32,416 nt of DNA from Thermotogota bacterium (lineage in GTDB: Bacteria; Bipolaricaulota; Bipolaricaulia; UBA7950; UBA9294), in contig JBDKUT010000072.1 of the NCBI GenBank assembly GCA_039679545.1, forward strand, positions 1-32,416. The letters run 5' to 3'. The notes under the pieces are model-generated. The model worked only from the letters and a program-made list of their open reading frames with translations, ran no database searches and was not told where the DNA came from. Of the stretch, positions 4,000 to 21,784 are shown piece by piece; position 1 is the stretch's first letter, and every line of letters starts with the position of its first letter. The translations under genes and the position numbers were made by a program.

Positions 4000-5120
4000 G
4001 GTGTGGGCTCCTCGGCGAGCAATGCTTCAATCGCCGCGACAAGCGCGTCGCCGCGCAGACCGCGCGCGCGGATGACGCCGTCGCGACCGATGAGGTAGGT
4101 CATCGGGATCCCGCCGATCCGATAGAGAGAGGAGATCGGCCCGTCAGATCCGTCGTAGATCTGCGCGTACGAAAGGGCGCGCTTCGTGATAGCGTCGCGA
4201 AACGCGGCGTCGGACCGATCGAGGTTGACGCCGAGGACGATTACGCCCTTCTCGCTCAGAGCCTCGTGGATGCTGACAATCGTGGGCAGCTCCGCAAGGC
4301 ACGGGGCACACCAGGCGGCCCAGAAGTCGAGAAGCACGATCTTCCCGCGGAGCGAGGCAACGTCGACCAGATTCCCCTGCACATCCAGCGCCGTGAACCC
4401 GGGGGCGGGGAAGCCTTCGAGAAGCGGAGGCTTCGGCGAGGCAGGCACGGCCGCGGTCACGATCTCGGCCCAGGAGCCGTCGGCCGCCACGGCCGCGGTG
4501 ACGTACGTCGTCCCCTCAATGACGAACGGCTCGTAGAGGCCGAACCGCTCGTGGGAGTCGGCGTCCGTCAGGAGCCGGCCGTCTCCGTCAACATCCACGA
4601 ACAGCGTCCCGGCGTCATCGTCGAACCTCCCGTTGGTGTCGTCGTCGACGACGGCGAGCGCAACGGTCCGTCCCGCGGTTTCGAGCGCTCCCGATCGATA
4701 GTTGTCGCGGCAGTACGTAACCACCACCGGAAGAAACGGAGACCACATGAGGAACGCGCGGTAGGATGCCGTCTGGCTTTCGGTGCCGGTGAGAATGAAC
4801 TCCGGAGACGCGAGCAGCGTTCCGTCGGCGAAGGCTTGGTCCCATTCGACGGGCGTCGTTGTCCCGTCCCCATCGAGGTCGACCGCGAGCGTCGCTCCGT
4901 CCGTCGGGGAAGCGATCCGCACGGCGCGCCGCTCGCCCGCAAGGGTCAGGATCCCGGAGAGCGCTCCGCGGTCCGTCCCGTCGGGCGAGACCTGGATCAT
5001 GTGCAGCGCACAGGACGTCGTGAGGAGGGTGATGTCGCCCACGTACTCAAGAGGAACCGTCGCCGCGGCCGCGGCGCAGGCTACGAAAAGCGAGACGCAG
5101 ACAACGGCGGCCGCTCTCAT
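3996..5120 (-). CDS. TlpA/ResA-family disulfide reductase (redoxin) with a large exported N-terminal domain
   Basis: The C-terminal domain reads APGFTALD..G..V....LRGKIVLLDFWAAWCAPC...GIPMTYLIGRDG. The ATG at 5120 overlaps the gltX stop (ATGA) and begins a signal peptide, MRAAAVVCVSLFVACAAAAA. The ORF-track start at 5318 lies inside gltX. Confidence 0.88.
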   Translation of the reverse strand: MRAAAVVCVSLFVACAAAAATVPLEYVGDITLLTTSCALHMIQVSPDGTDRGALSGILTLAGERRAVRIASPTDGATLAVDLDGDGTTTPVEWDQAFADGTLLASPEFILTGTESQTASYRAFLMWSPFLPVVVTYCRDNYRSGALETAGRTVALAVVDDDTNGRFDDDAGTLFVDVDGDGRLLTDADSHERFGLYEPFVIEGTTYVTAAVAADGSWAEIVTAAVPASPKPPLLEGFPAPGFTALDVQGNLVDVASLRGKIVLLDFWAAWCAPCLAELPTIVSIHEALSEKGVIVLGVNLDRSDAAFRDAITKRALSYAQIYDGSDGPISSLYRIGGIPMTYLIGRDGVIRARGLRGDALVAAIEALLAEEPTP

Positions 5121-6406
5121 CCGCGGGTCTCCCCGGCGTACGCGCGAAGCCGATCCACGGTCATCGACGGGCCCACGGCCGACAGGATCTCGAACAATCC
5201 CGGTCCCACCTTCCGCCCGGTGACGGCGATCCGGCAGGCCTGCGCCACGTCCTTCAGGGTCGCGTTCTCTCTGCCGAGGACATTGCGGAACGCCTCTTCG
5301 ACCTTCTCCGCCGTCCACGGATCGAGCGACTCGACCCCGTCGGCAAGGGTCGCCATGAGGTGAGCCTGCGTCGGCGTCACGGCGACCTGATCCTCACGTT
5401 CGAGCGGGACGGGGAACAGCATCTCCAGGGTTGCCGCGAGATCGGCAAGGGTCTTCGCGCGGTCCCGCAACAGGTTCGCCCCGGCACCAAGTCGCTCGCG
5501 GTTTGCCTGAGCCCACATCTCTGCGCTGACGTGCCCGCGCGCGACGACGAACGGCTCCGCAAGACCGACGAGCGCGTCGAGATCCGCGCGCTTCATGTGC
5601 TGCTGGTTGAGCCACAAGAGCTTGGCGTCCTCGAACACGGCCGCCGACTTGTTCAAGCCCTCTAGGGTGAACAGCCGAACGAGGTCGTCGCGCGAGAAGA
5701 CCTCCTCGTCCCCGTGGGCCCACCCCAACCGGACGAGGAAGTTCACGAGGGCATCCGGCAGGATTCCTCGGCTCTTGTACTCGAGGACCGAGGTGGCACC
5801 GTGCCTCTTGGAGAGCTTCCCACGGTCCGGGCCCAGGATCATTGGAAGGTGGTAGAAGAGCGGCATGGGGCGCTCGAGCGCCTGGTAGATCCGCATCTGC
5901 TTCGGCAGGTTGTTGAGGTGCTCGTCTCCGCGGATCACGTGCGTGATCTCCATGTCGACATCGTCAATGACCACGACGAAGTTGTAGACGAACGAGCCGT
6001 CGCTCCGTCGGATGACGAAGTCCTTCAACTGCTCGTTGTCGAACCGCACGTCACCGACCAGCTCGTCGTGCACGACCGTCGCCCCCGCGTCGGGAACGCG
6101 GAACCACCAAGCTCCTTCCTTCTCGTAGACCGCACCTGCGCGAAGGAGCGATTCCGCAACCTCCAGGTGGCGTTCGTGGCGCTCGGCCTGGCGGTAGTAC
6201 TCGTCCCAGTCCAGTCCGAGCCACCGCATCGAGGCCACAATCTGCTCGATGGCCTCGTCGGTGGACCGCTCGCGGTCCGTGTCCTCGATGCGCAGGACGA
6301 ACGTTCCGCCGGTGTGCCGCGCGAAGAGCCAGTTGAACAGCGCCGTGCGCGCTCCGCCGACGTGCAAGTATCCCGTCGGGCTCGGCGCGAACCTCACTCG
6401 AATCAT
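5117..6406 (-). CDS. gltX: Glutamate--tRNA ligase (short form, 429 aa)
   Basis: RVRFAPSPTGYLHVGGARTALFN, LRIEDTD, ITHVIRGDEH and KLSKRHG. A C-terminal anticodon-binding domain (RIAVTG..GPGLF) is present, so this is not GluQ. Confidence 0.96.
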   Translation of the reverse strand: MIRVRFAPSPTGYLHVGGARTALFNWLFARHTGGTFVLRIEDTDRERSTDEAIEQIVASMRWLGLDWDEYYRQAERHERHLEVAESLLRAGAVYEKEGAWWFRVPDAGATVVHDELVGDVRFDNEQLKDFVIRRSDGSFVYNFVVVIDDVDMEITHVIRGDEHLNNLPKQMRIYQALERPMPLFYHLPMILGPDRGKLSKRHGATSVLEYKSRGILPDALVNFLVRLGWAHGDEEVFSRDDLVRLFTLEGLNKSAAVFEDAKLLWLNQQHMKRADLDALVGLAEPFVVARGHVSAEMWAQANRERLGAGANLLRDRAKTLADLAATLEMLFPVPLEREDQVAVTPTQAHLMATLADGVESLDPWTAEKVEEAFRNVLGRENATLKDVAQACRIAVTGRKVGPGLFEILSAVGPSMTVDRLRAYAGETRG

Positions 6407-7824: not shown

Positions 7825-10800
7825 ATGATCGTGAAGAACCGACAGAGTGTCTATTTCATCCTTCTCACCGCCGCCACGCTTCTCTCGGTGATTGGACTCT
7901 CGGGAGGTGCGGAGGACAAAGCCCTGGTGCCGACCGCCGGGCCTGTCGCTCCGACCGTCGTGCGCATCGTGCCCCAACGGGGCGAGGAGCTTCGCGCCGA
8001 CGCGGCCATCGTCCTCAGCTTCTCGACCGAGATGGACCGCGACTCCGTCGAGGACGCCGTCCGCCTGTCTCCCGAGGTGCCAATCCGATTCGAGTGGTCC
8101 GGTGGGCGCACGTTGCGGATTCTCCCCGCTACCGTGTGGTCGCGGGACGTCGAGTACGCCCTGACGGTCACGACGAACGCACGCGATCTCACCGGGGGTT
8201 CGTTCGCGGAATCCGCCACGTTTCGCGTTCGCACGGTCGGCTTCCTTGAAGTGACCCAGACCGCCCCCGCCGACGGGTCCACCGAAATCGCCACGACGAG
8301 CACCGTCGTCCTGACGTTCAACCGGCCCGTGGTCGCCCTGGCCGCTCTGTCGGATCCGCGCAGCGCGGAGCTTCCGAAGCCCCTCCATCTCACCCCCGAA
8401 GCCGCGGGCAGAGGGGAGTGGCTGAACACGTCCATCTACGTCTTTACCCCCGAACGGCCGCTGCGCGGCGGCACCCAGTACACGGCGACCGTACCCGCCG
8501 GATTGACTGACACCACGGGAGGACTCCTCGCCGTCGACGCATCGTGGACGTTCACGACGGAGCAGCCCAAGGTCGCGTGGACAACACCGGACTCCGGCGA
8601 GACCCTCGTCTCCATCAACACGATGGTTCGCATCGCCTTCAACATGCCGATCGGCGGCGCCGCCGCCGCCGATCACTTCTCTCTTCGTAAGGTCGGGCTC
8701 CTCGGGATTCCGGTCGGCCCGAAGGTCGAAGGAACCGTATCGACCGAAGGGAACGACGTCCTGTTCACGCCAAAGGCCTCGCTTGACTACGACACGGAGT
8801 ACCTCGCCACCCTCGAGCCCGGCGTGACGGGAACCGAAGGTGGGCTCGGGACCGAAGCGTTTACCACGTGGCGTTTCCGAACGGTTCCCCTGCCCCGCAT
8901 TGTCGGCACCTCGCCCGAGGACGGCGACGACAACGTCTACCCGTACGCGTCGTTCCTGATCAAGTTCAACACGCCGATCGACCCCGACACGGTGGTGAAT
9001 CACGTCACTGTGGAGCCGGCCCCGCCCCCGAGTGACCTCTCCTGGTACTACCGACCTTGGGACAACACGTACGTCCTCGATTTCGGCGCGGCTCCGAGCC
9101 GAACGTACGCCGTCCGCGTCAGCCCCGGCATCTCCGATCCCTACGGGAACAAGACCGCCGAGCGCCTCACCGTGAAGTTCAAGACGGCGGCCCTCGAGCC
9201 CTCCGCCTGGTTCCACGTCCCCGACCACGTAGCGACGTACAGCACGTACGAGCCGGCGCGTCTCTACGTCGGGCACCGCAACACGGACGAGCTCCAGCTG
9301 ACGCTCACCCGCATCGACACCGCCGCGTACTTCCGGGCGATGTCCGACTGGTACAACTTCAACCCTCCGGCGGAGGGGAAGCTGCGGTCCTGGGCGGTGT
9401 CGGTGACCTCCGCTCTGAACGAGGTCGCCTACGCTCCCGTAGACCTCGTCAAGGGGGGAGGCACCCTCGAGCCGGGGATCTACGTCGTCGACGTCCACGC
9501 AAGCGGCGTTGAGTGGGACCGCTGGCAGCACCGCCGCATCCTCATTGCAAGCCCTACGCACTTGACCCTCAAGACGTCCAGCGAGGAGACCCTCGTGCTC
9601 GCCACCGATCTCGAGACCGGTGCTCCGGTGGGCGGCCTGATCCTGTGGGCGCTCGACGGCGACGGCGAGCCGATCGATGTCGACGTTACCGACAGCCGCG
9701 GCCTGGCCCGATTCCCCGCCGCGGGAACGTACGACTGGCGCGGCTTGACGGTGATGGCTCGAAGTCCGTTCGTCCTTTCGAGTTCCGAGTGGAGCGACGG
9801 CGTCTCGCCGTGGGACTTCGACTTCTCCTCCGAATCGTCGCCGAAGACCCGCACGTACATCGACACCGACCGCCCGATCTACCGTGCCGACCAGACCGTG
9901 TTCTTCCGCGCGGTGCTGCGCGGTGAGAGCGACGTCCAGTACACCATTCCGAAACCGGGCAAGGCGACCGTAACGATCCTGGATCCGTCGTGGAACGCTG
10001 TCTACGCGAAGGATCTCGCCATCGACGAGTTCGGGACTGTGTCGGACGAGCTTGTGCTCGCAAAGGATGTTCCGCTCGGGACGTACTCCCTCCGCGTCGA
10101 CTGGGAGGAGGAGTCCGCGTACGCCACGTTCGAAGTCGCCGCGTACCGAGTTCCGGAGTTCGAGGTCACCGTCGAGGCCGTTCCTAGCGAGACGGCACAC
10201 GGCAACCCGATCGCCGGCACTGCTCGCGTGACCTACTTCTTCGGCGCGCCGGTGGCCGACGTTCCCGTCGAGTGGCGGGTCGTCTCGACGCCGTACACCT
10301 TTTCCCCGCCTCAGCTTGAGCGGTACACGTTCAGCGACGTCGACGATCCCTGGAGCTGCTTCGGATGCTGGTGGCGGGCGCCGTCGCCGGTCGTACCGAT
10401 CCTCGAGGGGACGGGGCGAACCGACGCCTCGGGCGCCCTTGTGATCGAGCTCCCGCCCGACATCGCGTCGCGACTGAACGATCCGGAAGACCCTCCCGCC
10501 ACCGACAGCCGAACCCTCACCCTCGAGGCAACAGCCCATGGCCGCGACGGCCAGGCCATCTCCGGCCGAGCCAGCGTCGTCGTCCACCAAGGCTCGTACT
10601 ACGTCGGCCTCGCCGCGGCGAAGACGATCGCCCGCGCCGGCGAGGAGATGCCCGTCGACGTCGTCACCATCGACTGGGCCGGCGCTCGCCTCGCGGCCCA
10701 GTCGCTCTCCTACACCGTGTACCGACGCGAGTGGTCGAGCGTCTTCGAGTCCAACAAGACCGGGGGCGGCCGCTGGACCTGGACGTCGTCGGACGTCGAG

Positions 10801-13800
10801 GTCGCCCGCGGCGCACTGACGACGGACGAGCGCGGCGAAGGTCTCGTCGCCTTCGTTCCCGAGCAGGGCGGGACCTACAAGGTCGCCGTCCAGGGGCTCG
10901 ACGAACGCGAGCGACGGATTCGCGCCGGGTTGTTCGTTTGGGTAAGTGGCCCGGAGAGCGTGTCGTGGAGACGCGAGAACGACGACCGCATCGCACTCGT
11001 GAGCGACAAAACGACGTACTCGGTCGGCGACACCGCGAAGATTCTTGTCCCGAGCCCATACCCGGGAACCCAGTGGGCGTGGGTGACGGTCGAGCGCGGC
11101 GGCATCCTCAGTCAACAGGTCGTCAAGCTGCCGTCGAACAGCGCCGTCCTCGAAATCCCGATTACCGAGGACGCCGTGCCGAACATCTACATCGGGGTTG
11201 TCCTCTTCCAGGGTCGCGCCACGGCCGTCGCCGCAGGGGCACCCCCCACCGCTGGGTGGAAGGTCGGCTACGTGGCTGTGTCCGTGAACCCGGCCCCAAG
11301 ACTCCTGTCGATCGCACTCGCCCCGTTGAGCGCCGCCCCGCAACCCGGCGACATCCTCAACGTGGCGCTGCGGGCGACCGACGCCGATGGACAGCCCGTT
11401 CGGGGGAGTTTCTCCCTCGACGTCGTCGACAAGGCGGTCCTCACGCTCCAGCCGCGGACGCCCAACCGGATCGCGGGCGAGTTCTTCGGGCGACGCGGCC
11501 TCGGCGTTCGCACGGCGGGCGGCCTGACGATCTCGCTGGGTCGCCTCGTGCTCGAACAGCAGGCCGATGTCGGACCCGTGGCCGCGGAGGGCGCTGGCAA
11601 GCGCTACAGCGTCGGTTCGGCGCTGCCGATGGCGGCGCCGATGGCGGAGGCGACGGCCTCCGACCTCGAGGAGGCACGTGGTGCTTCTGGACAGCTCCCC
11701 AGCGGAGTCGCTCTGCGCGAGGACTTCGCCGACACCGCGTTCTGGACGCCGGTCGTCAAGACCGACGCCGACGGACGGGCAACCGTCCAGGTCAAGCTTC
11801 CCGACAACCTCACGACGTGGATCGTCCGCGCCGTGGGCGTCACGACGCAGACCGAGGTCGGGGAGGCAACGGCCGACGTCCTCGTCACGAAGCCGCTCCT
11901 TGTTCGTCCAGCCGTTCCGCGATTCTTCGTGGTCGGCGACCGCGTTCGCCTCGCCGCTTCGGTCACGAACCAAACCCCCGACGTCCTCGCCGTCGAAGTC
12001 ACGATGGGCTCGACCGGCCTCACGGTCGAGGATCCGGCGGTCCGCACCGTCAACGTCCCTGCCCATGGAGAGGCGACCCTCACCTGGTGGGTGACGGTAA
12101 ACGACGTGCCGTTCGTTGATCTGGCCTGGAGTGCCGTCTCGGGGAAGTTGTCCGACGCCGCTCGGCCTCGCCTCACGACCGGCCCGGAGGGAACCGTCCC
12201 CGTGTACCGCTACACGGCTCCGGAAATCGTCGGAACCGCCGGCGTGCTCGCGGAGGCGGGCGGGCGTACGGAGACGATCGCACTCCCGCCCGAGTTCGAC
12301 GCGTCCCGCAGCCGCCTCGACCTCCGTCTCGACTTCTCGCTCGCCGCATCCCTGCGCGACGGTCTGTCGTACCTCGAGCACTTCGAGTACGAATGCACCG
12401 AGCAGGTCGTCAGCCGATTCCTTCCGAACGTGCTCACGTTCCGCGCGCTGCGACTTCTCCACCTCGACGACCCCGAGCTGACCGCGAAGCTCGACGACTT
12501 GGTCCTCCAAGGCCTCGAGAAGCTGTACACGCGTCAGAATGAGGACGGCGGATGGGGCTGGTGGGAGGGGGAGAAGTCCAACCCGCACCTCACAGCGTAC
12601 GCGACGTATGCGCTTCTCCGCCTTGGCGACGCCGATGTCGCCGTACGCCGCGACGTCGTCGACCGCGCTCTGAGCTTCCTGAAGGACGCCCTCGTGCCCG
12701 CGAAGGAACTCGACGCCGGGTGGGAGGCCAATCGCCAAGCGTGGATCCTCTACGTCCTCTCTCTCGGAAGCCCGTCGGAGAGCGTGAGGGCGTACGCCGA
12801 CGACCTGTTCACCGGACGAACCAAGCTGTCACACTACGCGAAGGCATACCTCGCCATGACACTCGACACCACGGCGCACGGCAGCGGGGCGGTTCGAACC
12901 CTTCTCTCGGATCTCACGAATGACGCGATCCTCTCCGCGACCGGCGCCCACTGGGAGGAACCCAACTACGACGGGTGGGCGATGAACACGGACACGCGAT
13001 CGACCGCCGTCATCCTCGACGCGTTCGCGAAGCTCGACCCGGAGAACCTGCTCGTCCCCAACGTCGTGCGTTGGCTCATGGTCGCCCGCAAGGACGGCAT
13101 CTGGGAGACGACCCAGGAGAACGCGTGGGCTCTCATCGCGCTCACGGACTGGATGGTCGTGAGCCGGGAGCTCTCCGCGAACTACGAATACAGCATCCTC
13201 TGGGATGGCGACGTGCGCCTCGAAGGAGTCGTGGCACCAGCCGGCGTCGAGACACCGGTTCGGGAGTCGATTCCCGGTGCAGAGCTTGGACCCGGCGATC
13301 TTCATCCGCTGACCTTCTTCCGCGGCCGCGGCGACGGAAAACTCTACTACACGGCCCACTTGTACGTGCAACTGCCCGCCGATCAGGTGAGTCCACTCGA
13401 TCGAGGCATCCTCGTCGATCGGCGGTACGTTGCCGCCGACTGCGCGGCCGACGCGACGTGCCCCGATGTCGTTGAGGCCGCCGTTGGGGAGACGTTCGAA
13501 GTTCGTCTAACGATCATCGCTCCCCATGACCTCTACTACGTGGTCCTCGAAGATCCGATCCCGGCGGGGTGCGAGGCGATCAACACGACGCTCGCGACCG
13601 AGAGCGTCGTGAGTTCCGATCCGTCGCTGTCGCGGGAGAGCGGACGTTCGCCGTGGTACTTCTGGTGGTGGTGGCGCTGGTACTCGAGGAGCGAGATCCG
13701 CGATGAGAAGGTGGTCCTCTTCGCCGACTACCTCCCCGCAGGAACGTACAGCTACGTCTACCCAGTGCGAGCGGTCCAGCCCGGCGCGTACAAGGTTCTG

Positions 13801-13884
13801 CCGGCGAGCGCTCACGAGTTCTACTTCCCCGAAGTGTTCGGTCGGTCAGCCGGAAGGGCGTTCACGGTGCTCCCCTCCGAGTAG
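7825..13884 (+). CDS. Bacterial alpha-2-macroglobulin family protein with N-terminal tandem Ig-like (Big_5-type) domains
   Basis: Signal peptide and about four Ig-like repeats. MG-domain motifs are TDRPIYR, YRVPEFEV, VDKAVL, REDFADTAFW and LPDNLTTW. The thioester motif CTEQ is at 12394-12405, followed by QNEDGGWGWW, ETTQENAW and the C-terminal EDPIPAGCE...YFPEVFGRS. Confidence 0.96.
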   Translation: MIVKNRQSVYFILLTAATLLSVIGLSGGAEDKALVPTAGPVAPTVVRIVPQRGEELRADAAIVLSFSTEMDRDSVEDAVRLSPEVPIRFEWSGGRTLRILPATVWSRDVEYALTVTTNARDLTGGSFAESATFRVRTVGFLEVTQTAPADGSTEIATTSTVVLTFNRPVVALAALSDPRSAELPKPLHLTPEAAGRGEWLNTSIYVFTPERPLRGGTQYTATVPAGLTDTTGGLLAVDASWTFTTEQPKVAWTTPDSGETLVSINTMVRIAFNMPIGGAAAADHFSLRKVGLLGIPVGPKVEGTVSTEGNDVLFTPKASLDYDTEYLATLEPGVTGTEGGLGTEAFTTWRFRTVPLPRIVGTSPEDGDDNVYPYASFLIKFNTPIDPDTVVNHVTVEPAPPPSDLSWYYRPWDNTYVLDFGAAPSRTYAVRVSPGISDPYGNKTAERLTVKFKTAALEPSAWFHVPDHVATYSTYEPARLYVGHRNTDELQLTLTRIDTAAYFRAMSDWYNFNPPAEGKLRSWAVSVTSALNEVAYAPVDLVKGGGTLEPGIYVVDVHASGVEWDRWQHRRILIASPTHLTLKTSSEETLVLATDLETGAPVGGLILWALDGDGEPIDVDVTDSRGLARFPAAGTYDWRGLTVMARSPFVLSSSEWSDGVSPWDFDFSSESSPKTRTYIDTDRPIYRADQTVFFRAVLRGESDVQYTIPKPGKATVTILDPSWNAVYAKDLAIDEFGTVSDELVLAKDVPLGTYSLRVDWEEESAYATFEVAAYRVPEFEVTVEAVPSETAHGNPIAGTARVTYFFGAPVADVPVEWRVVSTPYTFSPPQLERYTFSDVDDPWSCFGCWWRAPSPVVPILEGTGRTDASGALVIELPPDIASRLNDPEDPPATDSRTLTLEATAHGRDGQAISGRASVVVHQGSYYVGLAAAKTIARAGEEMPVDVVTIDWAGARLAAQSLSYTVYRREWSSVFESNKTGGGRWTWTSSDVEVARGALTTDERGEGLVAFVPEQGGTYKVAVQGLDERERRIRAGLFVWVSGPESVSWRRENDDRIALVSDKTTYSVGDTAKILVPSPYPGTQWAWVTVERGGILSQQVVKLPSNSAVLEIPITEDAVPNIYIGVVLFQGRATAVAAGAPPTAGWKVGYVAVSVNPAPRLLSIALAPLSAAPQPGDILNVALRATDADGQPVRGSFSLDVVDKAVLTLQPRTPNRIAGEFFGRRGLGVRTAGGLTISLGRLVLEQQADVGPVAAEGAGKRYSVGSALPMAAPMAEATASDLEEARGASGQLPSGVALREDFADTAFWTPVVKTDADGRATVQVKLPDNLTTWIVRAVGVTTQTEVGEATADVLVTKPLLVRPAVPRFFVVGDRVRLAASVTNQTPDVLAVEVTMGSTGLTVEDPAVRTVNVPAHGEATLTWWVTVNDVPFVDLAWSAVSGKLSDAARPRLTTGPEGTVPVYRYTAPEIVGTAGVLAEAGGRTETIALPPEFDASRSRLDLRLDFSLAASLRDGLSYLEHFEYECTEQVVSRFLPNVLTFRALRLLHLDDPELTAKLDDLVLQGLEKLYTRQNEDGGWGWWEGEKSNPHLTAYATYALLRLGDADVAVRRDVVDRALSFLKDALVPAKELDAGWEANRQAWILYVLSLGSPSESVRAYADDLFTGRTKLSHYAKAYLAMTLDTTAHGSGAVRTLLSDLTNDAILSATGAHWEEPNYDGWAMNTDTRSTAVILDAFAKLDPENLLVPNVVRWLMVARKDGIWETTQENAWALIALTDWMVVSRELSANYEYSILWDGDVRLEGVVAPAGVETPVRESIPGAELGPGDLHPLTFFRGRGDGKLYYTAHLYVQLPADQVSPLDRGILVDRRYVAADCAADATCPDVVEAAVGETFEVRLTIIAPHDLYYVVLEDPIPAGCEAINTTLATESVVSSDPSLSRESGRSPWYFWWWWRWYSRSEIRDEKVVLFADYLPAGTYSYVYPVRAVQPGAYKVLPASAHEFYFPEVFGRSAGRAFTVLPSE

Positions 13885-14316: not shown

Positions 14317-14531
14317 CGTTCCACTCCTCGAAGGTTCCTCGAGCGGACCGTTCCACGGTACTGAAAGCCCGGAGAGCCCGGACTCCCGCGTGGGCCGTGC
14401 GGACGGGACATTCGCCAGTTCCCTACGAACGAGGACGAACCACGGTCACCGCCACCGAAGACCAATGTCTCGGGCGCGTTCACTGCGGGTCCCGCAGCGG
14501 GAAACACCGCTCGGCTACGGTTCTTCTCGAC

Positions 14532-17500
14532 ATGGATACGCGCAGAAGGCGTGGATGGGCGCTCGCAGCCGCCGTGGCGGTTGCGGTCGGGGTGGCGTTC
14601 GAGGCCCTGGCCGGCGTCGACCTGACTCTTCTGTCTGCCGACAAAGAGGCGCGCTCCGGGGAGTTCGTGACTCACGTCTTCTCGATCACCAACACGGGGG
14701 GCACCTCGGAGACCTACAGCCTGTCGACTGGTCTTCCGGACGGCTGGACCGCTCTCGGAGTCCCATCCTCCATCACGCTCGGGGCCGGGGACGAAGAGAC
14801 GCTGTTTCTGACGATCACCATTCCATCCGGCGCCCGCGCCGGCGCGTATGTCGTTGAGATGACAGCGGAGTCAATGAGTGATCCCACCGCAACGGCATCT
14901 ACGTCCGCGAACGTCGCGATCGGTGTGAGCAACAAGATCGAGATCGTCTCCCCTCCCGAGGGGGAAGGGATCGCACCCGGACAGGAAAAGGTCTACGAGT
15001 TCGTCCTCGTGAACCGGGGCAACGCTCAAGAGGTCGTGGCGGTGTCGGCGGAGTCGTCGCGCGGGTTTCCCGTCGAGGTGTCCCCAACCTCGATCGAACT
15101 CGCGCCCCAAGAGCGACGGACGTTCGCCGTCCGGATCTCCGTGCCGCTCACTACGTCCGCGGGGCGCGACGTCCTCACGGTCACGGTGACGTCCACGCTC
15201 TACGCCGACGTCACCGCCGAGGCCGTCATGTTCACCTCCGTTCGTCCCCCGACACCGTCCGCCGTCGGCGGCTCCCTGATCGAGCTCCTCGCGGGGCGGC
15301 TCCGCATCGGCGTCGATCGCAGCGAAACAGACAACACGTGGAACAGCCGCCTCTCGTTCTCGACCTCTGGGCGCGTCCTCGGCGGCTACCTCTCCGCGTC
15401 CTTCAACGTCGCTTCACCGTTCGGTTCCGAACCGCTCGACGTCACCTCCTACCAGGTCCTCTACCGCCTGGACCCAACGTCGTTCGCGCTCGGCGACGTG
15501 TCGCGGATGCTCACGGACTTCGTCGACGTGACGTGCGAGGGTGCGTACGCGGCGTTCGACACCGCGTTCGTCGATCTCGACCTCGTCGGAGGAATCGACG
15601 AGGATGAGGCGCGGTTCGGCGGCTACGTGGCCCTCGGCCCGGAGGCCGCGAACTTCGGGATCGCGTACTCCGACGCGCGAAGCCCGACGACCCAGGAGTC
15701 AATCTGGAGCGCGACGGCCTTCGCCGAGCCGTTGCCGAACTGGACGCTGCGGATGGAGGGCGCCGTCGGAACCGACAACGGGCTCCTCGGACACGCCTTC
15801 TTCGTCAACACGACGATCGACACGACCGCCTACTTCCTCACGGCGAGTGCGTTCTCCGCCGATACGTACTTCCCGGGACTTCGCAGCGACTCCGCGGGCG
15901 TCGAAATCGCCCAGCGGTTGCGTCTGAAGGCGCTCTCCCTCGGCATCTCGCTCGCCCACGTGAAGGACAACGTCGTCGGCGATCCGGCCGTTGACACCAC
16001 GATCGAGGACTCCCTCGGGTTCAACCTCTTCGCTCGTCCAATCGCCGGCGGCCCCGAGCTGCGAACGACACTCGAGTTCGAACGCGACCACGGCGTGGAT
16101 CCGGCCGTCCAGGATGACGTCAGCCTCCTCGTCGCCTACAGCATGTCCCAGTCTGGCGGGACCTTCCCGTACGCCTTCGACGGCCAGGTTGTCGACCGGG
16201 TTGACCGCGTGACGGGAAGCCACGTTCGAACGCTGACCCACGCGCAGGGCGTTGGACTCTCCGTGGATGCGTTCTACGCCTTCTTGCGGCTGCGCCAGGA
16301 GACCTACGTCGACGTCGTCACCGGAGCCACGCTGTCGGCGACGTCCAACGTTTCCGTCGTTCTACGTCCCGAGGGAACGCTCCACGAGGCGTCGATCACA
16401 TTCCGCAACGAGCTCGACGACTACGACGTGGAGGCGTCGCTGTTCCTCCGGGCTTTCCGCGACGTCGACCTTGCACTCTCCAGCACCATGGCCTGGGACC
16501 GTGACGGTGTGACGCCTCCGTCGTTCGGGTGGGGAATCTCGGTGCGGGTGAACTTCGGCGTGCTCGTCCCCTTTCTCGTCACCAAGGGACGCATCGAGGG
16601 GCGGCTGTTCATCGATCGGAACGGAAACGGTACGTACGACGCGGGCGATCCGCCGGTCGAAGGAGCCGTCCTCGCCGTCGACGGCCGTCAGGCCTCAACT
16701 GACGTAGACGGCGCCTTCCGCTTTCCACCCCTGGCTCCCGGCACATACGATGTTGTGGTCACAGAGCTTCCCGCCGATGCCGCCGCTCGCGCCCCCATCC
16801 CGGTGACGCTCCAAACGGGCCAGCTCGTAAACCTCGCCGTCCCCGTGTCACCGGCAGTGATTCTCCGCGGCTACATTTACGAGGACGCGAATCAAGACGG
16901 AACCCGCCAGGACACGGAGGGCGGGCTGAGTGGGATTCGCCTTGTCCTGACAGGTTCCGACGGAGTCCCATTCACCGCTTCGTCGGACCCACGCGGCGAG
17001 TTCGCGTTCTACGACCTTGTGCCCGGAGCGTACGTCCTCTTCGTCGATTCCCGATCCCTGCCGGCGCGGTTTGCGTTCACGACCGCAGAGACGCTGCACG
17101 TCGACGTCACGGCGTTCGGCGCGCCTCCCGCTACGATCGGCGGCTACATCCGGCCGCGCGAGGTACTCGTTACCTACCAACCGCCGACGGCCGACTTCGG
17201 CTACGTTCCCGCCGTCCCTCCGGTCGGCGCCGCCGTCACGTTCGACGCGTCCGGCTCCTTCGACTTCGACGGATCGATCGTCGACTACGACTGGGACTTC
17301 GACGGAGATGGAACAGCCGACGCAAGCGGAATCTCCGTCGTCTACGCGTTCGACACCCCCGGCCGGAAGTCTGTCACGCTCACCGTGACGGACGACGCCG
17401 GCAACGTTGACAAGAAGACCGTTTCCATTGAGGTCCAGGAGCCTCCGGAAGCCGTCGCCCCGGTCGCGATCACGGGAAGCTACAAGCCGCCGATCGCCGA

Positions 17501-18077
17501 CTTCGAGTATTCCCCTTCGGCGCCGACGCCGGGCATCGCCGTTGCGTTCGACGGATCCGCGTCGGTCGACTTCGACGGGCGGATTGTGGGCTACTCGTGG
17601 GACTTCGACGGAGATGAAGAGCGCGACGCGTCGGGTCCCTCCGCCTTGCACGTGTTCCCGGACGCCGGCGTGTACCCTGTGAGCCTGACCGTCACGGACG
17701 ACGGCGGGAACCGCGACACGGCTACCTACATCATCGAGATCGCGAGCCTGCAAGCCATTCCACTGGGCCCAACGACGGAGGCGCCGCCGCCCACGACCGT
17801 GCCGACCTCCGCGCAGCCGCCGATCGCCGACGTGCAGTACATGCCTCTGTCTCCAAAGCCTGGCGAGACGGTCATGTTCAGCGGAGAGCCGTCGGTCGAC
17901 CTCGACGGGACGATCGTCAGCTATGCCTGGGACTTCGACGGGAACGGCACGACGGACGCCACGGATCCCATCGTCGTCTTCGCCTTCCCGGCGGCGGGTA
18001 CGTTCAAGGTCCGACTCACCGTCACGGACGACGGCGGCAACACCGACTCGCTCGTGATCGAGATCGACGTGCAATAG
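14532..18077 (+). CDS. Large exported protein: 2x NEW3-like Ig domains, beta-strand-rich core, 2x SdrD-B-like domains, 3x PKD domains
   Basis: The ATG at 14532 gives the signal peptide MDTRRRRGWALAAAVAVAVGVAFEALA. Further evidence is ITNTGG..ETY...LPDGW and VNRGN repeats, G.LFIDRNGNG and GYIYEDANQDG motifs, and three PP.AD...WDFDGDG...V.LTVTDD.G repeats. The start is inferred, and no strong SD is seen. Confidence 0.85.
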   Translation: MDTRRRRGWALAAAVAVAVGVAFEALAGVDLTLLSADKEARSGEFVTHVFSITNTGGTSETYSLSTGLPDGWTALGVPSSITLGAGDEETLFLTITIPSGARAGAYVVEMTAESMSDPTATASTSANVAIGVSNKIEIVSPPEGEGIAPGQEKVYEFVLVNRGNAQEVVAVSAESSRGFPVEVSPTSIELAPQERRTFAVRISVPLTTSAGRDVLTVTVTSTLYADVTAEAVMFTSVRPPTPSAVGGSLIELLAGRLRIGVDRSETDNTWNSRLSFSTSGRVLGGYLSASFNVASPFGSEPLDVTSYQVLYRLDPTSFALGDVSRMLTDFVDVTCEGAYAAFDTAFVDLDLVGGIDEDEARFGGYVALGPEAANFGIAYSDARSPTTQESIWSATAFAEPLPNWTLRMEGAVGTDNGLLGHAFFVNTTIDTTAYFLTASAFSADTYFPGLRSDSAGVEIAQRLRLKALSLGISLAHVKDNVVGDPAVDTTIEDSLGFNLFARPIAGGPELRTTLEFERDHGVDPAVQDDVSLLVAYSMSQSGGTFPYAFDGQVVDRVDRVTGSHVRTLTHAQGVGLSVDAFYAFLRLRQETYVDVVTGATLSATSNVSVVLRPEGTLHEASITFRNELDDYDVEASLFLRAFRDVDLALSSTMAWDRDGVTPPSFGWGISVRVNFGVLVPFLVTKGRIEGRLFIDRNGNGTYDAGDPPVEGAVLAVDGRQASTDVDGAFRFPPLAPGTYDVVVTELPADAAARAPIPVTLQTGQLVNLAVPVSPAVILRGYIYEDANQDGTRQDTEGGLSGIRLVLTGSDGVPFTASSDPRGEFAFYDLVPGAYVLFVDSRSLPARFAFTTAETLHVDVTAFGAPPATIGGYIRPREVLVTYQPPTADFGYVPAVPPVGAAVTFDASGSFDFDGSIVDYDWDFDGDGTADASGISVVYAFDTPGRKSVTLTVTDDAGNVDKKTVSIEVQEPPEAVAPVAITGSYKPPIADFEYSPSAPTPGIAVAFDGSASVDFDGRIVGYSWDFDGDEERDASGPSALHVFPDAGVYPVSLTVTDDGGNRDTATYIIEIASLQAIPLGPTTEAPPPTTVPTSAQPPIADVQYMPLSPKPGETVMFSGEPSVDLDGTIVSYAWDFDGNGTTDATDPIVVFAFPAAGTFKVRLTVTDDGGNTDSLVIEIDVQ
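17181..18074 (+). repeat. Three tandem PKD-domain coding repeats
   Basis: Units begin near 17181, 17487 and 17817. Each contains TGGGACTTCGACGG and ACCGT(G/C)ACGGACGACG at the DNA level. Confidence 0.85.
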
Positions 18078-18115: not shown

Positions 18116-19321
18116 CTAGACAAGCTCGACGAACGCCCGCTTCCCGACCTGCACGAGGACCGGAGGATGGAACGGGACGTCGGCGTCGGGGGACTCGATC
18201 CGCTCCTCATTGACGCGGACCCCGCCCTGTTCGATGACGCGCTTCGCCTCACCGCGACTCTTCACGAGCCCGGAGGCATCGAGCAGGTCGATCACCCAGA
18301 TCGTTCCGTCGGCCTTCAGCTTCGATCGATCGAGAGTCTTCTGAGGCACCTCGGCCGGCCGCTCGTGGTGCACGTGGATCCGGTCGAACTCGGCCTCGGC
18401 CTCGGCCGCCGCCGCGGCGCTGTGGAACTTCGTGACGAGGGTCCTCGCAAGTCGCCGCTTCGCGTCGCGCGGGGCATCGTGAATCTCCGTCTTCACCGAT
18501 TCGATGTCCACGTCGGTCAGAACGTCGAAGTACGGTCCGATGAGCACGTCGGGGATCGACAGGAGCTTCCCGTACATCTCCTTGGGTGACTCGCCGATCC
18601 CGACGTAGTTGCCCGTCGACTGGCTCATGGCGCGCTCGCCGTCGAGGCCCACGAGGAGCGGAACGGTCAGCGCGACCTGCGGCTCCTGGCCGTACTCGCG
18701 TTGGATGTCCCTCCCGACGAGGAGGTTGAACAGCTGGTCCGCTCCCCCAAGCTCAACGTCCGCGCGGATGGCGACGGAGTCGTAGGCCTGCGCCAGCGGG
18801 TAGAGGAACTCGAGCACGCTGATCGAGCGGCCCTCCGCGTAGCGCTTCGCGAAGTCGTCGCGCTCGAGCATGCGCGCGACGGTGTACTTCGCCGTGAGCT
18901 GAATGACGTCGGCGAACGTCATCGCCCCGAGCCAGGTTGAGTTGTAGACGACCTCCGTCCGGGCCGGGTCGAGGATCTTGAACGCTTGGTCCTTGTACGT
19001 CGCCATGTTCCGCTCGATCTCGGCCTCCGACATCAGGGCCCGCGTCGACGCTCTCCCCGACGGATCCCCAATCCGGCGGGTGAAGTCGCCGACGACGAGA
19101 ACCCCGGTGTGCCCGAGGTCCTGGAACTGCCGCATCTTTCGCAGCGGCACGGAGTGCCCGAAGGTCAGGTGCGGTGCCGAGGGGTCGATGCCGAGCTTGA
19201 TCCGCAACGGCTTGCCCGTCTCTTTCGACCGGCGAAGCTTGGCGACGAGGTCCTCACGCGGGACGAGATCCTGGACTCCCCGTCCCAACTTCTCTTCCAC
19301 GAGCCGTTCGATCGCGTCCAT
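18116..19321 (-). CDS. tyrS: Tyrosine--tRNA ligase (bacterial type 2, C-terminal S4 domain) with atypical signature motifs
   Basis: LRIKLGIDP, GDFT.RIGDPSGR, EFLYPLAQAYDSV, DVELGGADQLFN and the S4 domain (SRGEAKRVIEQGGV...VGKR). HIGH reads TFGH and KMSKS reads AMSQS. Confidence 0.95.
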   Translation of the reverse strand: MDAIERLVEEKLGRGVQDLVPREDLVAKLRRSKETGKPLRIKLGIDPSAPHLTFGHSVPLRKMRQFQDLGHTGVLVVGDFTRRIGDPSGRASTRALMSEAEIERNMATYKDQAFKILDPARTEVVYNSTWLGAMTFADVIQLTAKYTVARMLERDDFAKRYAEGRSISVLEFLYPLAQAYDSVAIRADVELGGADQLFNLLVGRDIQREYGQEPQVALTVPLLVGLDGERAMSQSTGNYVGIGESPKEMYGKLLSIPDVLIGPYFDVLTDVDIESVKTEIHDAPRDAKRRLARTLVTKFHSAAAAAEAEAEFDRIHVHHERPAEVPQKTLDRSKLKADGTIWVIDLLDASGLVKSRGEAKRVIEQGGVRVNEERIESPDADVPFHPPVLVQVGKRAFVELV

Positions 19322-19333
19322 GATCCTTGTCCC

Positions 19334-21784
19334 TCACGTTCGGACGACGGAGACGATCCGGTCGTCCTCCTCCAGTTGAATGAGCCGAACGCCACGAGCG
19401 TAGCGTCGATACACGTTGATGTCCCCGGCGACGATCCGGATGACCTTCTGTTCCGTCGTAATGATGATCTCGTCCTGGTCGGAGACGATGACAACAGCGA
19501 CAAGCTCCCCGCACTCCGGATCGAGCTTGATCCCCTGCACGCCCTTGCCGCCCCGTCCCTGGACGGGGAAGTCATCGAGAGCGACGCGCTTTCCGTAGCC
19601 GCGAGTCGTCACCATGAGGAGCTTCTTGTCCATCGTGATCTCGCGCCCGAGGCACGCCATGCCGATGACATGGTCCTCTTCCTCGAGGCGGATCCCGATG
19701 ACTCCTCGGGACGGCCGCTTCGTCAGCCGCACCTCCTCCTCGCGGAACCGGATCGTCTGACCGCTTCGCGACGCGAGAATGACGTCGCCTCCCCCGTCGC
19801 CGACCGCGACGTCGACCAGGCGATCGTCGTCGTCGGCGTTCAGGGCGATGATCCCGTTGGCATTGACGTTCGAGTAGTCGTCGAGCCGGTTCTTGTTGAC
19901 GATCCCGTTCGCGGTCGCCATCAAGCACAGCTCATCCCCCACGTCTTCGAAGCTTCGCACCGGGAGAATGGACCGAACGAGTTCGTCCTGCTCGAGCGGA
20001 ACAAAGCTCCGTACGTTCTTCCCGGCCGCGTCGCGTCCGAGCGACGGCAACTTGTAGCCCTGAGTGCGGTACACCCGACGACGGTCGCTGAAGAAGAGGA
20101 GCTCGTCCCGGGCGTTGGCGAGACAGGTCACGGCCACGTAGTCGTCGTCCTTTGTCCGCTGGCCGATGACCCCCTTGCCGCCCCGTCCTTGGCTGCGGAA
20201 CTCCTGCGCTCGCGGCGCGTTCACGTAGCCACGCCGGGTCACGGTGACCATCAGGTCGTAGTCAGGGATCAACTCGTTGAAATCGACGGACCCGTCCTCA
20301 TTGGCGAGCGTCGTGCGACGCGAGTCGGGATACGCCTCTGCGATCTCCCGAAGTTCGCGCTTGATCGTCTCATCGAGCGTGACCTCACTCGCGAGGATCC
20401 CCTCGTACTCGGCGATCGCCCGCTTCTTCTCCTCGTACTCCGTATCGATCTTCTCGCCTTCCAGAATTCGCAACTGGGACAAGCGCATCTTGAGGATCGC
20501 GTCGATCTGCTCGTCGGTCAGCGCCAGCTCCTGCTGCAAGAGACGGGTTTCCGTCTCCGCGTCGCGCGCCGTGCGGATGATCTCGATGACGCGATCGATG
20601 TTCGCGAGCGCGATCCGGTATCCTTCGAGGATGTGCGCCCGTTCACGCGCGACCGCAAGGCGGTGCTCCGTCCGCCGCCGCACGACCTCACGGCGGAAGT
20701 CGATGAACGAATTCAGGATCTCCTTCAGGGACAGGGTCCGCGGATTCCCGTCAATGATCACGAGGAAGATCGCCGAGAACGTCCGCTCGAGCGGCGTGAA
20801 CTTGTACAGCTGGTTCAGAACGACATTCGGGTTCGCCGACTTCTTCAGTTCGACGACAATGCGTAACCCGTCGCGATCCGATTCGTCGCGCAGGTCGGAT
20901 ACCCCGTCGATCTCGCCGTTCTGCACCTTGGCAGCGATCGTCTCCACGAGCGTCGACTTCCTCACCTGGAACGGGATCTCGGTGATGACGATCTGGTTGT
21001 CCTCGATCGCAGCCTTGCCGCGAACCGTCATCTTCCCCAGCCCCGTGCGGTACATCTCCTCGATGCCGCTTCGCCCCATGATCACACCGCCGGTCGGGAA
21101 GTCCGGCCCCGGGATGTGCGTCATGAGATCCTTGACCGAGAGGAACGGGTCGTCCATCAGCGCGACAACCCCGTCGATGAGCTCTCCGAGGTGGTGCGGC
21201 GGGATCTGCGTCGTCATCCCGACCGAAATGCCCCACGACCCGTTCATCAAGAGGCTGGGAACGCGCGCCGGCAGGACCTGGGGCTCGTCGAGCGACTCGT
21301 CGAAGTTCGGACTCCAATCGACCGTCTTCTCGCCGAGTTCCTGGAGAAACTCCATCGCGACGGGCGACAATCTCGCCTCGGTATAGCGCGTCGCGGCTGC
21401 AGGATCGCCGTCGATCGAACCGAAGTTGCCTTGCCCGTCGACGAGCGGGTAGCGGTAGGAGAACTGCTGGGCCATGTTGACCATGGTGTCGTAGATCGCG
21501 AGCTCGCCGTGCGGATGGAATTTCCCCATCACCTCGCCGACCACGCGCGCCGACTTCCTGTGCGGTTTCCCGGGAACGACGCCCAGCTCCCGCATCCCGT
21601 AGAGGATCCGCCGCTGGACTGGCTTCAGACCGTCACGAATGTCCGGAATCGCGCGGCCGCGGATGACGCTCATCGCGTAGTTGATGTACGACTGCTGCAT
21701 CTCCTCTTCAATGAACACGCGCTCGAGCCGATCCGTGTTGCCTCCACTCTCTTCCCGAGGTTCTTCTTCGGGCGCGCCCTTCAT
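19334..21784 (-). CDS. gyrA: DNA gyrase subunit A
   Basis: [36 protein letters not shown], catalytic RYTEARL and GPDFPTGG. The C-terminal beta-pinwheel has a GyrA-box QGRGGKG at 20171-20191, which favours GyrA over ParC. Confidence 0.94.

Follow-up and report, generated by a model that had tools for sequence, protein, structure and literature searches.

We identified a bacterial type-2 tyrosyl-tRNA synthetase (TyrRS) that carries neither an HxGH signature with both histidines nor a KMSKS signature with at least one lysine, the two canonical marks of class I synthetases, and yet, judged from its sequence record, is a protein that behaves as the essential copy. The surprising part of this comparative picture is that, over most of a phylum, the sole TyrRS has lost both lysines and in places has apparently regained them. 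The gene, tyrS, lies in a window of 32,416 nucleotides (the whole stretch of DNA that was analysed), and the named homologs of its product belong to Candidatus Bipolaricaulota. The best reading is that of a housekeeping TyrRS which is active and whose phosphate site has been rewired, the activity and the geometry being what we infer. We regard it as almost certain that the enzyme is active. That it activates tyrosine by a rewired phosphate site, with arginines supplying the charge in place of the first histidine of HIGH and the two lysines of KMSKS, we consider probable by a modest measure. The features on which the argument turns are collected in Table 1.

Table 1. Positions within the window of tyrS, its neighbour gyrA and the residues discussed in the text.
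Feature	Position	Strand	Evidence
tyrS, type-2 (T. thermophilus/TyrZ-like) bacterial tyrosyl-tRNA synthetase, 401 aa	18116..19321	-	TIGR00234, Foldseek, single match
HIGH signature, TFGH, aa 53-56; Thr53 for the first His, His56 retained	19154..19165	-	motif scan, 1h3e alignment
KMSKS signature, AMSQS, aa 231-235; no lysine at either position	18617..18631	-	motif scan, codons, 1h3e alignment
Arg82 (T. thermophilus Gly81), lineage-specific gain, best candidate charge compensator	19076..19078	-	association counts
Met97 (canonical Leu), co-varies with Arg82	19031..19033	-	Met in 97% of lysine-free loci; Leu in 90% of phylum KMSKS loci
Ser48 (Thr in most canonical enzymes)	19178..19180	-	Ser in 89/89 lysine-free loci; Thr in 79% of 47 canonical outgroups
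Arg90..Arg94 loop (T. thermophilus R89/R93), retained basic residues	19040..19054	-	R94 invariant; R/K90 in 82% of lysine-free loci
His51, compensator proposed by the first-pass annotation, not invariant	19169..19171	-	76% of lysine-free loci
Arg230, immediately before AMSQS; fixed in near relatives, variable across the phylum	18632..18634	-	120/120 close homologs; 60% of lysine-free loci
Tyrosine pocket Y174-x3-Q178-x-Y180-D181	18779..18802	-	invariant, 86 aligned phylum proteins
GGADQ, class Ic GxDQ motif	18734..18748	-	G192, G193, D195, Q196 invariant (86 aligned)
S4-like C-terminal tRNA-binding domain, Pfam aa 345-379	18185..18289	-	PF01479, E 1.3e-8
gyrA, upstream neighbour of tyrS	19334..21784	-	NF004043 above cut-off

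The tyrS product scores 327.9 bits against TIGR00234, above the curated cut-off of 113.8, and its AlphaFold2 model (pLDDT 90.8 overall, near 70 at residues 81-100) matches the T. thermophilus enzyme 1h3e in Foldseek with a TMq of 0.86. PF00579 and S4 domains were both found, and the Rossmann catalytic, alpha-helical and S4 domains are all present. The tyrosine pocket and the S4 domain had been described as intact in the first-pass annotation, and both descriptions hold: the tyrosine-pocket and ribose residues D86, Y174, Q178, D181, D195 and Q196 show no variation in 86 aligned phylum proteins, pocket and GxDQ motif also line up with 1h3e, and the S4 match is significant (Table 1). Met232, Asn238 and Arg94 are invariant as well. 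A homodimer model (through the CP1 region), which included ATP and Mg and for which protein-protein contacts were listed, scored 0.88 against 0.00 for the best control, a score that may reflect likeness to solved TyrRS dimers; the mark applied lets through 20 of the 30 solved pairs and one of the 23 single chains. The runs agreed in at least 98% of contacts, with a pLDDT of at least 92.

With regard to the signatures, TFGH and AMSQS lie where the first-pass annotation had placed them, in register with HLGH and KMSKS of T. thermophilus. The alignment with 1h3e is free of gaps over both motifs (T53=H52, H56=H55, A231=K232, Q234=K235, and elsewhere R82=G81, R90=R89, R94=R93, with T. thermophilus on the right), so they are true substitutions and not a register shift. 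Thr53 is encoded by ACC, Ala231 by GCC and Gln234 by CAG; GCC is indeed three changes from AAG or AAA. A sequencing error had been held unlikely, and the data reject it. Among the best 120 database homologs (query included), Thr53 is found in 120, Ala or Ser231 in 120 and Gln234 in 119, motif codons differ synonymously among relatives, and a contig from an independent study (run X3), compared over positions 18514-18664, is identical across the AMSQS region with 0 differences. Contigs in RNA run X15 also span this region and keep Ala231; they belong to a relative, about 90% identical there, and are no sign that this gene is itself transcribed.

A search for a second tyrS in the genome (93.55% complete, 163 contigs), as the first-pass annotation had suggested, returned only the one TyrRS. 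The three PF00579 matches are this TyrRS and one TrpRS (HIGN, KMSKS) split over two contigs. Across the phylum, 176 of 184 genomes gave a match, 167 of them once; five of the nine genomes with two matches were opened, and these proved to hold split genes or C-terminal fragments. Among the 74 genomes that are at least 90% complete, PF00579 matched twice in 63, once in three and three times in eight, and the extra copy is a TrpRS in the seven of these eight that were resolved. The single-contig genomes G005 (96%) and G006 (99%) contain a lysine-free TyrRS only, with no second TyrRS. Values of dN/dS for tyrS are 0.062-0.096 in five same-genus pairs, and 0.02-0.05 for the catalytic domain. The gap between the gyrA stop and the tyrS start is 12 nt, as first reported, and gyrA lies upstream of tyrS in 100 of 110 phylum loci; in family f8, tyrS follows gyrA in none of seven. 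The genome encodes two tRNA-Tyr(GTA) genes of bacterial type (G1:C72, A73, long variable arm). Given the single copy, the selection and these tRNAs, the enzyme would be expected to activate tyrosine and charge tRNA-Tyr. We found no canonical housekeeping copy alongside it, no relaxed selection and no accessory context, any of which would have pointed to a pseudo-synthetase or a resistance paralog. The proposal of a paralog with altered function thus fails on the single TyrRS, the purifying selection and the conserved gene order, and the alternative put forward with it, an ATP site rewired in this lineage, is supported. The change looks specific to TyrRS, because the other class I enzymes recovered by a motif scan of the genome, which did not pick up CysRS, MetRS or ArgRS, retain basic residues: KMSKS in ValRS, LeuRS, IleRS and TrpRS, KLSKR in GluRS and VMSKR in GlnRS.

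Some further observations concern the same genome, the window and its relatives. The two tRNA-Tyr(GTA) genes differ from each other, and a further tRNA-like call, 93 nt long, has eight bases in its anticodon loop. GlnRS (HVGH/VMSKR) occurs beside GluRS. The latter is encoded at 5117-6406 (minus strand) as a protein of 429 aa with a shortened insertion region and the motifs HVGG/KLSKR, which we take to be canonical for its family. Positions 7825-13884 (minus strand) hold a 2019-aa open reading frame; read by eye, with its CxEQ motif and the Ig-like repeats in its N-terminal part, it resembles a bacterial alpha-2-macroglobulin. Positions 14397-18077 (plus strand) encode a secreted protein of 1226 aa in which PKD-like domains are repeated, and this gene is convergent with tyrS across a 38-nt gap. 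Some f3 genomes carry a second, divergent TrpRS (L415:48-1031, minus strand, with similar matches in L417 and L419); that of L415 has HLGH but TMHTS for KMSKS, its canonical TrpRS lying elsewhere in the genome. No relative was found in the viral contigs searched.

Of the 176 phylum matches, 110 loci were analysed, 50 of them from the enzyme's own family. Rows L323, L335 and L398, from unpublished genomes, were left out of the analysis as a whole. Whether the altered motifs co-occur in relatives had been raised in the first-pass annotation, and they do: 89 of the 110 loci, in eight families, are without both lysines, 88 of these 89 carry Thr53 and all 89 carry Gln234. The pattern common to the lysine-free loci is T-x-G-H with [ASVG]-M-[SG]-Q-[ST]. 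KMSKS is present in 21 loci, namely 14 in families f8 and f11, five in genus g26 (with TLGH) and two with TLGN. The f8 and f11 KMSKS loci have lost the second histidine of HIGH instead (HIGI, HLGF and the like), and two further loci, of f7 and f11, show HLGV/KMSKS and HLGH/KMSKS, both with Ala82. Forms with the second histidine replaced and KMSKS intact (HIGI, HIAI, HLGF, HLGI, HVGI, HLGV) were seen in L084-L088, L093-L099, L106, L107 and L426, from f7, f8 and f11. The TLGN loci, L032 and L039, combine KMSKS with Arg82 and a TrpRS-like reading of HIGH, possibly an intermediate state; TIGN occurs in TrpRS.

A tree of 75 rows, 27 of which are hand-chosen outgroups, was built with the motif columns masked and unites the TyrRSs of the phylum in a single clade (SH-aLRT 99). 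A single clade of the lysine-free rows is rejected (AU p 5e-12), and the KMSKS genus g26 is nested in a lysine-free family, with starred branches (98, 95) leading to it. Since both g26 and the TLGN pair branch from within lysine-free groups, in each case behind starred branches, KMSKS was probably regained twice, leaving aside f8 and f11, where it may be ancestral or reverted. The variant thus appears to be phylum-wide with apparent reversions, which goes beyond what the first-pass annotation saw. Three loci (L118, L119 and L122; contigs G132:C62 and G135:C40) have one or two extra stretches coding for the tyrS C-terminal S4 region directly downstream of full-length tyrS, 62-70% identical to this protein.

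The background frequency was taken from the 150 nearest representatives at 50% identity, 9-10 of which were unscorable per motif. The first histidine is kept in 129 of 141, the first lysine in 143 of 149 and the second in 136 of 149; some departure from HxGH/KxxK occurs in 25 of 140 scorable representatives. Thr at the first position of HIGH, found in 12 of 141, is not rare in this branch of TyrRS, and both lysines are absent from one of 149, a fragment resembling this lineage. By these counts, the unusual part is the loss of both lysines, and Thr for the first histidine is a modest departure. Four long representatives (640-714 aa; P0289, P0312, P0360 and P0369) carry the variant pair HIGR with KMSTS or KMSSS.

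A DNA pattern searched in GTDB, narrow in that it requires Gln at position 4 and omits some codons, so that other lysine-free forms may exist in other phyla, gave 107 stretches. Six are titled Actinomycetota, and the rest are titled as this phylum or (75 translated) are 52-96% identical to this protein. The actinobacterial TyrRSs (L171, L200, L240-L291, L310-L360, L391-L399) form a large TLGW group, with KMSQS in 78 and RMGQS in 42 of 120 homologs, and the TLGW type is the sole TyrRS in all five genomes checked. They resemble the enzyme described here in Thr at the first position of HIGH, in Gln at the fourth position of KMSKS and in being the sole TyrRS; they differ in Trp for the second histidine, in usually keeping Lys or Arg at the first position of KMSKS, and in having no Arg82. 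L200, L391 and L392, with TLGW and AMGQS or VMGQS, are without all four signature His and Lys residues and have Ala or Gly82, yet carry Arg230; the PF00579 matches of the L200 genome are TyrRS and TrpRS only. The two Thr/Gln groups stand apart in the best trees, though the AU test leaves room for a common ancestry (p 0.08; 40 rows, LG+G4).

Turning to residues that could compensate for the lost charge, the best correlate, and our best candidate, is Arg82, which is absent from the first-pass annotation. It occurs in 89 of 89 lysine-free loci, in two of 21 KMSKS loci (those with TLGN), in none of 149 loci outside the phylum and in none of 144 representatives, at a position that is normally Gly or Ala. 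All six Arg codons are seen, Met97 and Ser48 accompany Arg82, and no phylum locus is without both lysines and Arg82 at once. In g26, where KMSKS is present again, Arg82 is replaced by Ala82 and Met97 by Leu97. Co-evolution of Arg82 does not reach statistical proof, as independent events are few and kin are not independent: of four independent pairs, two agree, none is opposite and two show no difference (p 0.5). Arg82 is not needed everywhere, because L200, L391 and L392 are lysine-free with Ala or Gly82. In the AlphaFold2 model it lies in a three-residue helix directly after strand 2. The subunit face of the dimer model lists residues 80, 83, 84 and 96 but not 82, which may leave Arg82 free to face the cleft. 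It probably faces the phosphate site. Of the neighbouring residues, Ser48 occupies what we take to be the position of the gamma-phosphate hydroxyl, and Arg90 and Arg94 are presumably the phosphate-binding basic residues.

The first-pass annotation had proposed His51 and Arg230 as the compensators. As universal compensators both fall short across the phylum, given their shares of lysine-free loci (Table 1). His51, present in 118 of 120 close homologs, gives way to Gln in about 10% and to Asp in about 10% of the 89 lysine-free loci, and Arg230 is replaced elsewhere in the phylum by His, Phe, Lys and others. Arg230 may nevertheless help in certain branches, since all close homologs and the three lysine-free actinobacterial enzymes carry it. 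Pro59 was rejected as a specific compensator, being present in 58% of lysine-free loci and in 43% of 47 canonical outgroups.

These observations suggest how the site could work. The usual two-step TyrRS chemistry would be retained, and the backbone of the loop, together with its Met, would still hold the adenine. Ser233, Gln234, Ser/Thr235 and Thr53 would offer neutral hydrogen bonds to the phosphates, and Arg82, beside the Ser48-Thr53 loop, would reach the beta and gamma phosphates next to Arg90 and Arg94, with Arg230 adding charge in this family. Historically, the gain of Arg82 likely made the lysines dispensable, and in the one genus where they returned, Arg82 and Met97 likely reverted too. 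A bolder claim, about which we are more doubtful than convinced, is that type-2 TyrRSs have a second, lysine-free way of stabilising the transition state at near-normal rate, through Arg82, Arg90 and Arg94 with the signature Thr and Gln, fixed across most of the phylum and switched back to KMSKS at least twice; together with the Actinomycetota enzymes free of all four residues, these essential enzymes would form a complete, naturally occurring double-mutant cycle for the class I signatures.

The strongest rival, which we consider unlikely but worth real weight, is an active sole TyrRS without compensation. Such an enzyme would be slower, or would lean on Arg90 and Arg94, the motif serines, the backbone, Mg2+ or K+; slow-growing anaerobes would tolerate it, and Arg82 would be structural or tRNA-binding. 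K+ takes over from the second lysine in human TyrRS. Signature variants are common among the representatives, TLGW/KMSQS, HLGF and HIGI forms occur, and lysine-free enzymes without Arg82 exist in Actinomycetota; moreover, a full-length LeuRS with AMSAS and double mutants remained assayable, according to the available part of PMC10450160. The near-complete fixation of Gln234 and Thr53 in lysine-free loci despite synonymous turnover, however, looks like constraint rather than relaxation, and slow growth has not relaxed the basic residues of the other class I synthetases of the genome.

An improbable explanation is selection for resistance to a natural adenylate-mimic inhibitor of TyrRS, as with the G/AxHH motif of IleRS2, with activity kept by secondary changes. 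We know of no such inhibitor in these habitats, the gene is a fixed neighbour of gyrA and not an accessory copy, and the tyrosine pocket is unchanged. On the other side, only TyrRS is altered among the synthetases scanned in this genome, Actinomycetota have Thr/Gln forms as well, and nested lineages show KMSKS again; a swapped HxGH motif gave up to 1000-fold mupirocin resistance at mild catalytic cost in the accessible portion of PMC10485003. Resistance would, in this sequence-based weighing, give the reason for the change and not the way the site works, and it could hold alongside the best reading. Very improbable is a removal of the lysines because acetyl phosphate would otherwise acetylate them and so inhibit the enzyme. 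E. coli TyrRS loses activity when K85, K235 and K238, corresponding to Arg90, Ala231 and Gln234 here, are acetylated (PMC6209979, as far as its available text goes), but acetate kinase is present in only four of 184 phylum genomes and was not found in this one, Lys90 persists in 24% of lysine-free loci, and other synthetases keep KMSKS. We give a negligible chance to a paralog that is inactive or in decay, and likewise to an error of assembly: the completeness and contig number of the genome make a missing gene formally possible, but the single copy, dN/dS below 0.1, the gyrA order, the recurrence of the motif in 89 of 110 loci, the independent contigs and the lack of a second TyrRS in single-contig relatives argue against it.

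TyrRS is the textbook example of HIGH and KMSKS side chains stabilising a transition state, and a naturally occurring, essential TyrRS that has neither lysine and no first histidine would mean that these residues are replaceable. The sister enzymes offer a series for testing signature coupling: HLGH/KMSKS, HIGI/KMSKS, TLGH/KMSKS, TLGN/KMSKS with Arg82, TLGH/AMSQS with Arg82, and TLGW/AMGQS. Motif-based calls of an inactive synthetase can be wrong, and the unusual ATP site may be of use to synthetase engineering and to work on inhibitor selectivity. A search of main texts, exact motif strings included and with subscription papers mostly outside its reach, found no description of this variant, nor of the TLGW/KMSQS form of Actinomycetota. 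The available parts of PMC5919687, PMC10810186, PMC6366043 and PMC12093056 mention nothing of the kind, and their supplementary alignments could hold such sequences. PMC5919687, in that same part, describes KMSKS as poorly conserved across class I and reports that TyrRS His mutants lose activity, and the LeuRS study with an AVGA/AMSAS cycle states, in the text we could draw on, that HIGH-KMSKS coupling had not been examined before it (PMC10450160).

Among known systems, the nearest are T. thermophilus TyrRS (1h3e, 9sdf/9sfb/9sfq) and the type-2 structures 6bqy and 6byq, with about 45% identity and TMq of 0.86-0.88. They share the Lys in strand 1, the tyrosine pocket, GxDQ, the equivalents of R89 and R93, and the S4 domain; relative to T. 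thermophilus, H52 is Thr here, K232 Ala, K235 Gln, G81 Arg and T47 Ser. G. stearothermophilus TyrRS is the mutagenesis model, in which roles are known for T40, H45, K82, R86, K230 and K233. It belongs with E. coli TyrRS to the other bacterial subfamily (23-27% identity); the fold is alike and the reaction presumably the same, but H45, K230 and K233 (K235 and K238 in E. coli), which are given a part in the transition state of those enzymes, are missing from the present one. Pro59 sits at what we take to be the Thr51-equivalent position, with Pro as in the G. stearothermophilus ATP-affinity mutant T51P.

Eukaryotic TyrRS and TrpRS (KMSAS/KMSSS) have lost the second lysine, for which a Ser or a distal Arg is put forward as the substitute in the parts available of PMC2275098 and PMC1934993. 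They keep the first lysine and both histidines, whereas both lysines are gone here; that eukaryotic TyrRS loses only the second lysine, as the first-pass annotation had it, agrees with yeast KMSAS in the same portion of PMC1934993. For human TrpRS, the accessible text of PMC2275098 has Lys349 binding the alpha-phosphate and Arg162, a proposed surrogate for the missing lysine, binding the gamma-phosphate, and favours the motif Ser (Ser351) over the distal Arg as compensator. The candidate arginine follows strand 2 here and strand 1 in human TrpRS. Finally, IleRS2 with G/AxHH (Brkic et al. 2023, PMC10485003, in the part available) is likewise a class I enzyme in a housekeeping role whose signature has changed in nature, and it too shows a wide distribution and a reversion. 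In IleRS2, HIGH alone is altered and the cause, mupirocin, has been shown, whereas in the TyrRS described here both signatures are changed.
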